A stretch of DNA of 64,000 nt from Eledone cirrhosa (taxonomy: Eukaryota): the NCBI GenBank assembly GCA_964016885.1, contig OZ024741.1, forward strand, positions 212,722,001-212,786,000. The letters run 5' to 3'. Under the pieces are notes generated by a model, which saw only the letters and a program-made list of their open reading frames with translations, was not told the origin of the DNA and ran no database searches. The translations under genes were made by a program, and so were the position numbers. This document shows positions 440 to 62,682 of this stretch, in pieces. Numbering within the stretch: the stretch's first letter is position 1; each line of letters opens with the position of its first letter.

Positions 440-563
440 ATGCAAATGAGGCTACTCACCCAATGTATACTAAAGAAAATACTATATATTATCAACCGTT
501 CAACACATTGGCAGAGAGGTATATAGTCCTGATAAAGGGTAATGGCCCAGAAACATGTTGATT
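440..563 (+). ncRNA. Octamer plus degenerate type I hammerhead ribozyme in a short TA-flanked element
   Basis: ATGCAAAT at 440-447; agtc CTGATAA a gggt aatg gccc a GAAA catg tt gatt at 525-563 (G8 mutated to A). Confidence 0.5.
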
Positions 564-681
564 GTTCCTCACAGTCAGTGTTGAACAGACAGGTGACGTC
601 CGGTAACCGGTACGGTACAGCTTCTATAGTGGCTCGTTTGTTTACAAACGTATCGAACATTATTATTAATATTCGATATAA

Positions 682-874
682 GGGCGGCAGTTTGGCAGTA
701 TCGGTAGAGGGTCGGACAACATGCCTTGCAGCACAGAGTTACGCCCCTTTCTGATCTGAGTTCAAATCCTGCCAAGGTTAACTTTGCCTTTCATCCTTAC
801 GGGGTCGAATAAATAAAGTACCAGTAATGCACTGGGATAATTGGTGGCTTTGTGCCAAAAGTAGAAACAATTAT
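682..874 (+). mobile_element. tRNA-derived SINE (family S1)
   Basis: A-box-like tggcagtatcgg, B-box-like gttcaaatcc, core ttgcctttcatccttacggggtcga..aagtaccag; 16 bp TSD ttattaatattcgata at 663-678 and 871-886. Confidence 0.9.
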
Positions 875-1339
875 TAATATTCGATACAGCCCATAGTTAC
901 ATATTTATATGTATATATATATGTGTGTGTATATATATATACAGATATGTATGTATATATATATATGTGTGTGCGCATGCATACTTACTTATAAATACAG
1001 TATATATATATATATATACGTGTGTGTGTGTGTGCTGAGGTAACATAGGTGCCAAGTTGTATCAGATCTTACTTTTCCTTAGGACAACATCAGCGTCGTT
1101 GACAGGCAAGACATTCATGCATGGGCGATTGGTGACCTGCAGAAAACTTCCTGACCAGGCTTGAGCCACGAATAGGCAATCACATGGTCAGCCAGTCATG
1201 AATGCAAATGTCAAGTCATGTCATAACTGAAGTAATTTCTCTCCTTCGCTCTCTCTTCTCTCTTTTGCTCTCTCGCGATTCCTCTCTCTAAGTAGGGCAT
1301 ACTCCAACTACTGATGCTGTTGCCACTACGACTGCTGCT

Positions 1340-1637
1340 TCTACTACTACTACTACTACTACTACTACTACTACTACTACTACTACTACTACTACTACTA
1401 CTACCACCACCGCATTCACCAGCACCACCACCACCACCACAACCACCACCACCACCACCACCACCACCACCACCACCACCACCACCACCACCACCACCAC
1501 CACCACCACCACCACCACCACTACTACTACTGCTACTACTACTACTACTACTACTACTACTACCACCACCACTATCACCACCACCAACAGCACCCTTCAC
1601 CACCACGACTCCAATACAACAACCACCCCACCACCAT
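1340..1637. repeat. (CTA)n/(CCA)n microsatellite
   Basis: Direct inspection. Confidence 0.95.
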
Positions 1638-2934
1638 TAACTGTACTACTGCATTTTCTTCGGCCCTATCTCACTCACATGGCCAGGGTCAACTATTGGT
1701 TTCTGGTACAGACGCTTGCCCAAAATCTCACGCAGTGACCTCGTTATTGTGAATTAAATCTTTAAGCCATTCGTCCATGCTTCCACTAATTTTAGTAATG
1801 ATATACACTTCAAACAGTTGAACACAATATATTTATGAAGTGCTGCTGTAAGTGATATTAACGTCAAAGTTTGAAGCCCCTCTGTAGATATAATATTAAT
1901 GTTTTAACCAGAAATATGACCTGCGTGCTGCAGCTCACCCAGTGGCACGTCACGCTCTGCACGTAAAATGTTAAAATTTCAACCAGAAATGCAACTTGTG
2001 TTTAGTACCTCACTTTGTTAACCTTGTAGGTACAGTGTTAAACTTTGAACGAGAAAGTTAACCTGTGTATTGTGACTCACCTATTAGAAATAACAGCCTT
2101 CAATCCCACCCTACTTCTTAAAAAATGATAACATCTATGACTCCACAAGATAATGTAGCAAAACAAAGACAAGGCTTGTATAATTTATGTGATGTTCATG
2201 GCTGGAAGTGAAGGCCTGTGACTAAGAGGTTAGTAAGTTTAGCTCAGGATTATAAGTTCTTGGGTTCGGTTTCCGAACAGTTGAGTATGAACATTACAAC
2301 GGATTGTCCAGAAGGGGATTCTTGTATACTCAGTTGTTTAACACAACTTGAAACTTAACAATACCTGTTGCGCCACTAGACCTGGGCCAAACTGAAACTT
2401 TGTTATCACAGCAGGAAACCTGTTGTCATAGGCCTGTTTATTACGAGCCGACATGTTGGTTAAGCAACAACAAAAATAAAGATAAGACAGACAACAAAAT
2501 ATAATGTTTAGGTAAGATTTATTATCACACTACTATAAACATATCAACTTAACAAGTCCATATGGCCTTTAGTCAAACTATGAGGTGAATAGTAATCTAT
2601 AGGTTGTGGAGAACTTATTATATAGCTATGCAAAATTAATTGAAGCATGGTGACTATCAGATTGGGGAGAAGCTTAAGAGCTTTCTTTATGTACAAATTA
2701 AAGCAGAGCTATATAATATATGAATGGAATTTTGTCAGCATAGTTGGAAATCGTTTATTACAACATGAAATCAAATATTTATTTATTTAATATGCCGCAT
2801 TGAAATCGGTTTCATGCCAAATTACACTTCGCTTGCGAGTTCAAAGATTTTTGAGATATCAGAAGTTCGGCAGTTCAAAGATGGTTCGCTAAATATTTGA
2901 TATGAAATGATATATGTATTGAAATAATATATAA

Positions 2935-60382: not shown

Positions 60383-60570
60383 TATATATATATATATTCA
60401 TATATATATACACACACATAAACACACACACACACACACACACACAACACACACACACACACACACACACACACACACACACACACACACACACACACAC
60501 ACACACACACACACACACACACACGCACACACACACATATATATATATATATATATATATATATATATAT

Positions 60571-60998
60571 AAGAGGGTGTTAAAGTTTGCTTGAAGCATT
60601 GTGAAATGTATAAAATATGTAGTTTAGAAAGCCACAACAATGCAGATGGGAAATCTCGAGGTAGGAAGTGAGTGAGAAATAGGAGAAAAGTGAAAATTGA
60701 GAGAAACGAAAATGAAAACAAAACAAAGGTAGAAGGGTTACCGTAGTGGAGATTTAATCCCAATATTTCGGGCTCACGCCCATCAACGGGGGAAAGTTCC
60801 AAAAGGGGGGAACAGGGTAAGCCGGAGAAAGTTGTATTGTCGTTAAAACATAGGAATGCCGTTAAAGCTACGGTAACCCTTCTACCTTTGTTTTGTTTTC
60901 ATTTTCGTTTCTCTCAATTTTCACTTTTCTCCTATTTCTCACTCACTTCCTACCTCGAGATTTCCCATCTGCATTGTTGTGGCTTTCTAAACTACATA
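60571..60998. mobile_element. Inverted-arm element (family H)
   Basis: Near-perfect IR 60616-60747 / 60868-60998; HHR-like motif on - at 60759-60792; relative at 9580-9645. Confidence 0.8.
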
Positions 60999-61105
60999 TA
61001 TATATATATATATATATATATATATATATATATATATATATATATATATGAAAGACGTAAAATAAGAACATTTTAAAAATTAAAAATTAACTTACTAAAA
61101 TGTTC

Positions 61106-61187
61106 ACTCCAACTAATTAGTTTCTGTAATGGGATAAAGATAGTTACGCAATGTAACCATCGAGAATTCATTACGTCATCAGGGAGT
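61106..61187 (-). ncRNA. Type I hammerhead ribozyme, family B relative
   Basis: actcc CTGATGA c gtaatg..gatggttac attgc gtaactatc..cattac a GAAA ctaattag tt ggagt; lies in element 61050-61225. Confidence 0.85.
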
Positions 61188-61606
61188 CCGTACATCTGGA
61201 CGCATATGTTGGTAAATATACTAATTCTCTCTCTCTCTCTCTCTCTCTCTCTCTCTATATATATATATATATATATATATATATATATATATATATATAT
61301 ATATATATATATATATATATATATATCAATATATATATATATATATATATATACATATATATATATACATATATATATACATATACGTGTTTACAGTCTC
61401 GCACGTTCCCCTTATTTACGTGTCCCAACGACTTTATTTAGCCGTTGCTCGCACCAACTGGAGGTATATGGTCTTTAAAGCGATGAAATACCAATGAAGG
61501 TTGGAAGATCACTGATGAAGGACTAACTTTATTCATATATATATATATATATATATATATATATATATATATATATATATATATATATATATACATATAT
61601 ATATAT

Positions 61607-62682
61607 AATTAAGTTAAAAATGTACATCTACATATGCATACTGAAATACTAGTGTGTATATGAATACACACACGTATACATATGCAGATGTAACAAGTCT
61701 TTCACTGGTTGCTTTACTGTGAGCAACCCAGCTATTCTGTATGTAAACACACAGACAAACCGGTTTTTAGAGTCATACTGGTTTTCGAGGAAACACCTTC
61801 CCTCTATTCTCTAGAAAGCCAGACAAGGAATATTGAACTAGTTTCGTTGCTGTCACAACTCATCAGCAATATTTACCTATCTACCGGCCTTTCTGGAGAA
61901 TTGTAAAAGCACATATCGTTATATGCTTTTTCTATGAAAATTAGTAGTGGGCAGACCAATTTGCATAGAGTGTGAGTACGCACCGGTTCAGCGGAGACGA
62001 TAAAAACAAATAACGAAACGAAATTAAATTTCGTTTCGTTTGTAACTCACTTTTGTATGACTGACGCTTAAACAATTAAGTTAAAAATGTACATCTACAT
62101 ATGCATACTGAAATACTAGTGTGTATATGAATACACACACGTATACATATGCAGATGTAACAAGTCTTTCACTGGTTGCTTTACTGTGAGCAACCCAGCT
62201 ATTCTGTATGTAAACACACAGACAAACCGGTTTTTAGAGTCATACTGGTTTTCGAGGAAACACCTTCCCTCTATTCTCCAGAAAGCCAGACAAGCATATA
62301 ACGATATGTGCTTTTACAATTCTCCAGAAAGGCCGGTAGATAGGTAAATATTGCTGATGAGTTGTAACAACGAAACTAGTTCAATATTCCTTGTCTGGCT
62401 TTCTAGAGAATAGAGGGAAGGTGTTTCCTCGAAAACCAGTATGACTCTAAAAACCGGTTTGTCTGTGTGTTTACATACAGAATAGCTGGGTTGCTCACAG
62501 TAAAGCAACCAGTGAAAGACTTGTTACATCTGCATATGTATACGTGTGTGTATTCATATACACACTAGTATTTCAGTATGCATATGTAGATGTACATTTT
62601 TAACTTAATTGTTTAAGCGTCAGTCATACAAAAGTGAGTTACAAACGAAACGAAATTTAATTTCGTTTCGTTATTTGTTTTT
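61607..62682. mobile_element. Family A element: ~1.47 tandem 467-nt monomers plus inverted arm
   Basis: aattaagttaaaaatgtacatc at 61607 and 62074; flip at ~62294; HHRs at 61829-61873 (-) and 62347-62388 (+); octamer at 61959. Confidence 0.9.

Follow-up and report, generated by a model that had tools for sequence, protein, structure and literature searches.

The present study reveals that, in a 64,000-nucleotide stretch of the Eledone cirrhosa genome (hereafter the window), an octamer lies on the hammerhead strand at a near-fixed distance ahead of type I hammerhead ribozymes, and that the repeats carrying it are non-LTR retrozymes. We lean towards the reading that this octamer forms part of a compact internal Pol II promoter, made of an Oct site and a PSE-like segment, as reported for newt satellite 2.

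The octamer and its distance to the ribozyme

All five sites named in the original prediction hold the exact octamer upstream of a ribozyme and on the hammerhead strand, 88 to 100 nt from the core, and the distances given there were reproduced. From octamer start to core, the distance is 89 nt in family A (octamer 440..447, core 529..559, both + strand), 88 nt in family B (8818..8825, core 8707..8737, - strand), 100 nt in both family C copies (24298..24305 and 61959..61966, cores 24175..24205 and 61836..61866, - strand), and 93 nt in family D (core 60075..60108, - strand), the minus-strand cores being counted from 8737, 24205, 61866 and 60108. Subtracting the 8-mer and the first helix I stem gives 77-78 nt (A), 74-75 nt (B), 85-86 nt (C), and 78 nt (D). 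In family D the octamer stands in three 33-bp units (60194..60267, - strand), which read ATGCAAAT at 60260-60267, ATGCAGAT at 60227-60234, and ATGCAAAT at 60194-60201.

A scan of both strands of the window for TATGCAAAT returned seven copies (439+, 8818-, 10823-, 24298-, 60194-, 60260-, and 61959-); shuffled controls held 2.46 on average, and at least seven in 1 of 100 shuffles. The unlinked background was 8 octamers per 128,000 positions, so the chance of an octamer within a 13-nt band is about 8e-4 per ribozyme. Five of the eight retrozyme-type hammerheads in the window have the exact octamer, one (copy E) has ATGCAGAT 92 nt ahead of its core at 55159+, and two belong to inverted, 5′-truncated family C copies that begin 3′ of the octamer position. 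Thus, among the copies extending far enough upstream, the octamer, a predicted POU2F1 site such as lies upstream in snRNA-type promoters, is exact in 5/6, and the sixth keeps 7/8 letters. Copy E and the exact octamer at 60260-60267 add to the sites recognized earlier. The longer pattern proposed at that time (octamer plus flank) matches only the five linked sites. The proximal octamer site of family D is exact in only one of the three monomers seen, E having ATGCAGAT and the downstream partial monomer having decayed.

The core words and helices of type I hammerheads are present in eight loci, and their helices covary, with both-sided change in 14 of 21 pairs. Core C at 24175..24205 matches Rfam HH9 at 38.6 bits (E=3e-6), which is below the gathering score of 52. 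A hammerhead model built from the eight retrozyme-type loci of the window disclosed no ninth locus, the next match having E=0.023. Core A carries G8 to A (CUGAUAA) and core D carries U4 to A (CAGAUGA), and judging from these substitutions the hammerheads of both copies are probably inactive. Helix II of core B is weak.

Downstream of the octamer the layout is common to the families: about 27-29 nt, a GAAAA..ATATA box, a long stem, and the type I hammerhead. The ATATA box lies about 45 nt past the octamer. This second box occupies 475..488 (+) in family A, 8778..8788 (-) in B, 61920..61932 (-) in C, and 60153..60166 (-) in D.

Retrozyme copies and their common ancestor

The octamer carriers combine a type I hammerhead fold, head-to-tail monomers of a few hundred bp, and non-coding, highly self-paired RNA, as expected of non-LTR retrozymes. 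No credible ORF was found in the repeats, and the family C monomer RNA folds far more strongly than its shuffles (z -11.6). The 467-bp monomer of family C was evident as a head-to-tail period in the window and as junction contigs in three of the four sequencing runs examined; among the runs listed as containing the sequence, none was of RNA. Family D forms a partial tandem with a period of about 435 nt, and only single units of A, B, and E were seen. The copies have Penelope-like inverted ends and are located at (TA)n. The family A copy (440..676, +), about one monomer long, starts at a (TA)n run, a SINE-like repeat (659-881) breaking into it close to the 3′ end, and the family B copy (8580..8836, -) begins at a (TA)n run 11-12 nt ahead of the octamer. 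Family C is represented by a copy in the main orientation (23944..24355, -) and a copy of about 1.5 monomers with period 467 (61607..62294, -), whose 5′ end lies 8 nt past the point where the preceding monomer is predicted to be cleaved. The inverted C copies occupy 24352..24762 (+, hammerhead at 24434) and 62292..62684 (+, hammerhead at 62354). The family D locus (59770..60395, -) has a short inverted end. Copy E of the same family (54919..55329, +) is about 79% identical to the copy at 60 kb, with ATGCAGAT at 55067-55074, its second box at 55102-55115, and its core at 55159-55192.

A broken autonomous Penelope-like element (55799..59486, +), with a reverse transcriptase, a C-terminal GIY-YIG-type domain, an inverted end, and minimal hammerheads at 59285+ and 55992-, is a candidate for the family of the mobilizing enzyme. 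Sequence searches of Pfam and PDB left the pieces of its ORF unassigned, and the element was named from its homologues. No octamer precedes its ribozyme; at the four loci in the window where Penelope-like pseudo-LTRs hold minimal hammerheads, other promoter-like words occur at a similar distance. Separately, the miRNA matches among the 150 of 270 Rfam matches listed were rejected as microsatellites and palindromes.

The families had been thought mostly not to align outside the octamer. On the contrary, 3′ of the ribozyme 4/6 family pairs align above shuffles, which rules out independent origins and makes the families distant homologues. Therefore, the near-fixed spacing of the original prediction is real, but it was inherited once from a single ancestor and does not represent four independent arrangements. 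Even so, the longest run of invariant columns shared by A, B, C, and D is the octamer (8/8 columns; permutation p=0.00042, in an alignment anchored on the octamer and with copies selected for carrying it). Invariant columns number 54/262 overall, and the second-longest invariant run is ATATA (5). Pairwise identity is 1.00 at the octamer and falls to 0.30-0.66 across spacer, ribozyme, and 3′ parts. The octamer is kept by sequence, whereas the ribozyme is kept by structure through compensatory change. A variant-free stretch of 54 nt over the box region was dismissed as a signal (p=0.43).

The proposed internal promoter weighed against other readings

Three features favor an internal promoter: the octamer is kept in sequence and the ribozyme in structure, the second box keeps a fixed spacing behind it, and the octamer unit has been amplified in family D. 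The octamer would be the activator site of a compact promoter of the snRNA Pol II kind, with the RNA starting just ahead of the ribozyme. A POU2 (Oct-1-like) factor on the octamer might help to bring SNAPc to the PSE-like segment (+15 to +40), and Pol II might start at about +75 to +90, the RNA continuing into the next monomer. Two hammerheads would then excise one unit with the promoter sequence in its 3′ part, and, once this unit has been circularized, a Penelope-like reverse transcriptase with (TA)n as its priming site could copy it. Since the promoter would lie within the excised, circularized, and copied unit, new tandem copies would again have it ahead of the ribozyme.

A promoter internal to the monomer, as originally predicted, is thus still the best reading, but the label snRNA-type fares less well, because the PSE requires a relaxed spacer and fails in families B and C. 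PSE scoring used the vertebrate consensus from the available text of PMC7949045, which may differ from an octopus PSE. With an inner spacer of 4-5 nt, picked after looking at the data, copies A, D, and E match 13/16 positions (shuffle p 0.0025-0.006), and B and C fail under both the strict and the relaxed spacer. With the strict spacer (0-2 nt), 0/5 copies beat shuffles (p 0.10-0.86). No snRNA genes were found in the window, and the literature searched offered nothing usable on a mollusc PSE. The octamer also stands only 15-20 nt from the PSE-like segment and not in the distal element (-250 to -170) usual for snRNA-type promoters, to which H1 is the known exception. Transcription from such promoters depends on SNAPc and begins 40-70 bp past the PSE.

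An ordinary Pol II promoter, with a POU site beside a TATA-like box and without SNAPc, would account for the octamer and ATATA being the two best-kept words and for the failures of the PSE match in B, C, and under strict spacing. It leaves aside, however, the PSE-like match at the expected place in A, D, and E and the newt satellite precedent for an snRNA-type promoter (available text of PMC2220036), and we consider it doubtful. A type 3 Pol III (U6/H1-like) promoter giving short RNAs that end at T runs is less plausible still. The octamer, the PSE-like segment, and the TATA-like box do follow one another within 50 bp, an order that the accessible descriptions of H1 share, and each of the four 3′ ends of family C copies in the window falls at a T5 run or 8-11 nt beyond it. 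Those ends, however, can also be explained by priming through short likeness to (TA)n, and the ATATA box is only a few nt past the PSE-like segment, far short of the 15-19 nt at which TATA follows the PSE in vertebrate Pol III promoters (PMC7949045, as far as its available text goes). Besides, a type 3 unit should be free of T runs, whereas families C and D have two T5 runs each. T5 runs in both families stand past the predicted start and ahead of the next ribozyme; they would halt Pol III before the second ribozyme and leave the promoter uncopied, which argues against Pol III and for Pol II. Yet the copies continue across the cleavage site and reach further 5′ than the predicted start.

Alternatively, the signal may act at the RNA level, the octamer forming, within the circular RNA, the 5′ side of a degenerate hairpin recognized by a Penelope-like reverse transcriptase or a host factor, and its POU likeness being incidental. 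In local folds the partner of the octamer is a segment 25-35 nt further on (z -2.1 in A, -1.6 in B, and -4.3 in C), its pairing probability in family C is 0.86, and one hairpin register pairs 48/63 cells (76%), several of them G-U, versus 29-46% when slid. Many family C copies also terminate 34 nt ahead of the octamer (12 contigs in run X2 and 1 in X5), which would place it near a favored priming place. However, that register was derived from the B and C folds themselves, compensatory pairs number 0/11, and the central C is unpaired in 5/6 copies. The folds of D and E are no better than shuffles (z +1.0 and -0.7), RNAalifold found no consensus structure over the octamer region, and in a C monomer that is self-paired throughout, hairpins are expected anywhere. 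We regard this reading as a serious rival, though rather improbable. Most improbable of all, in our estimate, is a functionless word inherited from the common ancestor of the families, with the repeats transcribed by read-through, as proposed for retrozymes in the available part of PMC7761336. It agrees with the shared descent, with the decay in family D, and with the octamer-to-box region of family C (50 nt), where protection is not significant (2/32 variant sites versus 3.5 expected, p=0.30). It sits poorly with an eight-column invariant run where 18% of the columns outside the octamer are invariant, the more so as the run coincides exactly with a canonical factor site.

If the internal promoter is taken further, animal retrozymes may generally be self-promoting, with an old snRNA-type promoter shared ahead of the hammerhead in salamanders and cephalopods alike, the 50-bp octamer-PSE-ATATA form revealing the cephalopod PSE, and high-copy families spreading POU sites in octopus genomes; this extension we hold to be unlikely. 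In the window, the idea of POU-site spread is based on a single orphan octamer (10823..10830, -), with (TA)n about 6 nt further on and no ribozyme. The octamer announced there is present, but the longer pattern originally attributed to it is not matched. The alignment of the orphan to family C reaches p=0.004 only with the octamer included, and its upstream flank alone shows no significant likeness (p=0.49).

Relation to known systems

Relatives were also sought elsewhere. An octamer-blind hammerhead pattern found 1 viral and 10 metagenome loci, of which 0/11 carried an exact octamer in sense orientation within 160 nt; no relative was among them. Octamer-linked patterns gave 240 loci in viral and prokaryote contigs, which is the chance level, and one of them passed a loose hammerhead filter. 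Two family-specific words had 0 matches in viral contigs. In the literature searched, from which subscription papers were mostly absent, no paper was found on an octamer module in cephalopod hammerhead repeats. Coats, Zhang and Epstein reportedly described in 1994 a newt satellite 2 with an snRNA-type promoter, including an octamer and a PSE.

Metazoan non-LTR retrozymes (Cervera and de la Pena 2020, PMC7229834, in its accessible text) share with the present repeats the tandem type I hammerhead monomers of a few hundred bp, the low GC, the lack of a coding region, the strongly self-paired RNA, and Penelope-like elements in the same genome. At 467 nt, monomer C slightly exceeds their range of 150-450 bp, and the octopus repeats are known here from DNA. 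The available main text of that report makes no mention of octopus, cephalopod, or octamer. Retrozyme sequences also exist for coral, axolotl, and mussel (the last as GenBank MN642551-MN642576). Penelope-like pseudo-LTRs (PMC8557442, available text) likewise have partial tandems, an inverted 5′-truncated copy, (TA)n targets, and a hammerhead and promoter inside the terminal repeat. In contrast to them, the octopus repeats encode no protein and have canonical extended hammerheads, and no significant likeness was found between the retrozyme repeats and the terminal repeat of the local Penelope-like element.

Circles made from retrozymes abound in the animals tested, and the octamer module makes the question of their transcription testable. 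A 2020 review, in its accessible part, describes retrozymes as seemingly without promoters and invokes read-through (PMC7761336). If it is a promoter, the ATGCAAAT module would account for the transcription of repeats that this review calls promoterless, would carry the newt finding over to a distant phylum, and may supply a compact native promoter for cephalopod tools. The human H1 promoter (RPPH1) holds an octamer, a PSE, and a TATA within 100 bp and functions with both polymerases (PMC7949045, PMC9652321). As compared with the available accounts of H1 (these and PMC3499247), the octopus module has no recognized Staf site, its PSE match needs a longer inner spacer, its TATA-like box is too close, and its octamer lies about 15-20 nt from the PSE-like segment instead of about 20-30. 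According to the accessible text of PMC2220036, Pol II uses an snRNA promoter lying inside newt satellite II. The newt and the octopus repeats are both hammerhead-bearing tandems whose internal promoter, predicted in the octopus case, is interpreted as snRNA-type and driven by Pol II. The octopus case differs in belonging to a cephalopod rather than an amphibian and in having the octamer adjacent to the PSE-like segment with an ATATA box after it, the two systems being likened by description.

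Conservation of the octamer and homology of the families

The four hammerhead-bearing repeat families of the window (A to D), which match non-LTR retrozymes as defined in PMC7229834, belong to a class that is itself already known. Upstream of the ribozyme, on the same strand, they share an 8-nt Oct/POU-type word (octamer). In an alignment of one copy of each family, 54 of 262 columns were invariant, and the octamer formed the longest invariant run (8 columns; permutation p = 0.00042, an optimistic value because the copies were selected for their octamer, from which the alignment also starts). 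The second run, ATATA (5 columns), lies about 45 nt past the octamer within a second box (GAAAA..ATATA); every other run was ≤2. Pairwise identity was 1.00 in the octamer, 0.53 to 0.87 in the second box, and 0.30 to 0.66 elsewhere, including the ribozyme. Replacing the family D copy with copy E (family D; 54919..55329, +) would break the octamer run at one letter, and a partial D monomer downstream has decayed octamer sites.

The original prediction held that these families mostly do not otherwise align. Downstream of the ribozyme, however, four of the six pairs align above shuffles (A-B, z 7.3; A-D, 4.0; B-C, 3.6; B-D, 3.0), while A-C and C-D do not. Judged by their sequences, the families are homologous, so that the near-fixed octamer distance was inherited once. 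Each of the five linked octamers was recovered as originally placed, as was the orphan at 10823, which has no ribozyme; the predicted spacings of 78, 75, 86, and 78 nt were reproduced once the octamer and first stem were subtracted. Counted from the start of the octamer to the core, without this subtraction, the distances are 89 nt in A, 88 in B, 100 at both C loci, and 93 in D.

A descriptor scan of the window gave 8 hammerhead loci versus 0 to 2 in five crude shuffles; motifs B and E and one of Penelope type escaped it and were recovered by a looser listing. A model built from the eight retrozyme-type motifs re-found those eight and no further convincing hammerhead in the window. Rfam HH9 scores two C motifs at 38.6 bits, below its gathering score. 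Compensatory changes in 14 of 21 pairs, against 3 to 7 in slid registers, support the hammerhead fold, the shuffle control of this test being inflated by related sequences (tool warning). The exact octamer is present in five of the eight retrozyme-type loci; E has ATGCAGAT in its place, 92 nt from the core, and two are inverted copies beginning downstream of the octamer position. At the background of 8 unlinked octamers per 128,000 positions, an octamer would fall in a 13-nt band by chance 8e-4 times per ribozyme. The family D octamer lies within a 33-bp unit repeated three times at 60194-60267.

Metagenome contigs L003, L005, and L010, probably from animal host DNA, bear motifs resembling hammerheads, in which helix III has the same palindromic form and helix II is weak; no octamer lies upstream of these motifs.

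Repeat context and the Penelope-like parallel

The window (34% GC) is rich in (TA)n, other microsatellites, and one SINE-like family. A non-LTR retrotransposon with an intact 1141-aa ORF (RVT_1 and zf-RVT domains; 44088-47513, -) adjoins a broken relative (40598-43659); two unlinked octamers (43244, 48996) lie in 3′ parts of the broken non-LTR relative. Directly 5′ of copy B, and on its strand, lies an AT-rich repeat present in two copies (8888-9163 and 29938-30194; 86% identical); it contains an internal hairpin as well as several near-octamer words. Nearly perfect long palindromes flanked by (TA)n runs (59554-59655, 20575-20666, 51128-51401, 53735-53790, 55501-55691) are probably MITE-like or fold-back insertions. 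A further family with a long inverted arrangement (24790-25560 and 61046-61183), carrying CTGATGA at 24917 (-) and 61182 (-) without a clear helix I, is possibly a decayed ribozyme family.

Family C has a period of 467 bp within the window, and its monomer folds far better than shuffles (z -11.6). Contigs crossed its head-to-tail junction in three of four runs examined (4 of 23 listed), and its octamer bin was covered in all four, under four organism codes. Both C loci comprise a main copy and an inverted 5′-truncated copy, each terminating at (TA)n, as does a broken Penelope-like element (55799-59486, +); this is the layout described for Penelope-like insertions in PMC8557442. The element's RT piece has as its best named homologue a protein of Octopus vulgaris (70% identity), and the element's C-terminal domain aligns to a GIY-YIG-bearing homologue. 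The main C copy at 61607..62294 (-) begins 8 nt past a predicted cleavage site and continues through the next ribozyme, which, in this one case, would fit a cleaved multimer or circle as template. A similar AT-rich hairpin (CGAA..TTCG type) terminates the retrozyme families shortly before (TA)n (61999-62040, -; 590-676, +; 8580-8640, -; 55270-55329, +) and is a candidate reverse transcriptase signal. Many family C contigs stop at 62000.

No octamer precedes the minimal hammerheads in the terminal repeats of two Penelope-like families (4 loci). All four loci carry CGCATGCGC about 100 to 108 nt before the core, and three have an exact AA(A/G)ATGGCG at 47 to 60 nt; the paired words, the second at least in similar form, span 59185-59233 (+), 56044-56092 (-), 252-320 (-), and 34746-34815 (+). 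We take these to be NRF1-like and YY1-like words, respectively. The two families' terminal repeats give no mutual blastn alignment despite the common words. Promoter-like words thus occupy the pre-ribozyme slot of both element types, which agrees with the promoter reading but does not test it.

Promoter class and the RNA-hairpin alternative

The octamer module is probably a compact internal promoter of some kind; that it is specifically a predicted snRNA Pol II promoter, with putative membership of the SNAPc class, we favor only slightly. The internal snRNA-type promoter originally proposed is partly supported. Scored against the vertebrate consensus of PMC7949045 (16 positions, final TG omitted, in the form printed there; a mollusc PSE may differ), none of five copies beat shuffles with a spacer of 0 to 2 nt. 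With 0 to 5 nt, a range widened after inspection, A, D, and E reached 13/16 (p 0.0025 to 0.006), and B and C 10/16 (p 0.4 to 0.5). Invertebrate PSEs are unlike vertebrate ones, as PMC11892584 illustrates with insect PSEA/PSEB, and the literature searched yielded no mollusc PSE. Since a PSE sits 40 to 70 bp upstream of the start (PMC9652321), the start is predicted at the foot of helix I, roughly +75 to +90 counted from the octamer. In family C, and likewise in D, two T5 runs lie between this predicted start and the next ribozyme, and the ATATA box is far closer than the 15 to 19 nt separating TATA from PSE in vertebrate Pol III promoters (PMC7949045); both features speak against Pol III.

The main rival, that the octamer acts in RNA as the 5′ arm of a hairpin read by a protein, appears unlikely. 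In B and C the octamer lies opposite a 7-of-8 inverted copy 26 nt downstream, and single-sequence folds pair both; the register, however, was derived from these two families themselves. Although it pairs 48 of 63 cells, versus 29 to 46% in slid registers, it has zero compensatory pairs, and the central C of the octamer is unpaired in five of six copies. Folds of D and E did not surpass those of shuffles, and RNAalifold returned no consensus structure. A DNA site in self-paired RNA would be expected to give one fixed arm and a loosely matching partner, but so would a sequence-reading RNA-binding protein. The variation seen in family C contigs does not decide between the promoter and hairpin readings: the 50-nt stretch running from octamer to box holds 2 of the 32 variant sites, where 3.5 would be expected (p = 0.30), and one of these two is a rare change within the octamer.

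Our searches found no paper that describes retrozymes of octopus or an octamer in those of invertebrates, though supplements or subscription papers may hold such a report. According to PMC7761336, retrozymes seem to be without promoters. Newt satellite II carries a reported internal snRNA promoter (cited in PMC2220036), of which the octamer module of the Eledone cirrhosa repeats would be the predicted counterpart.
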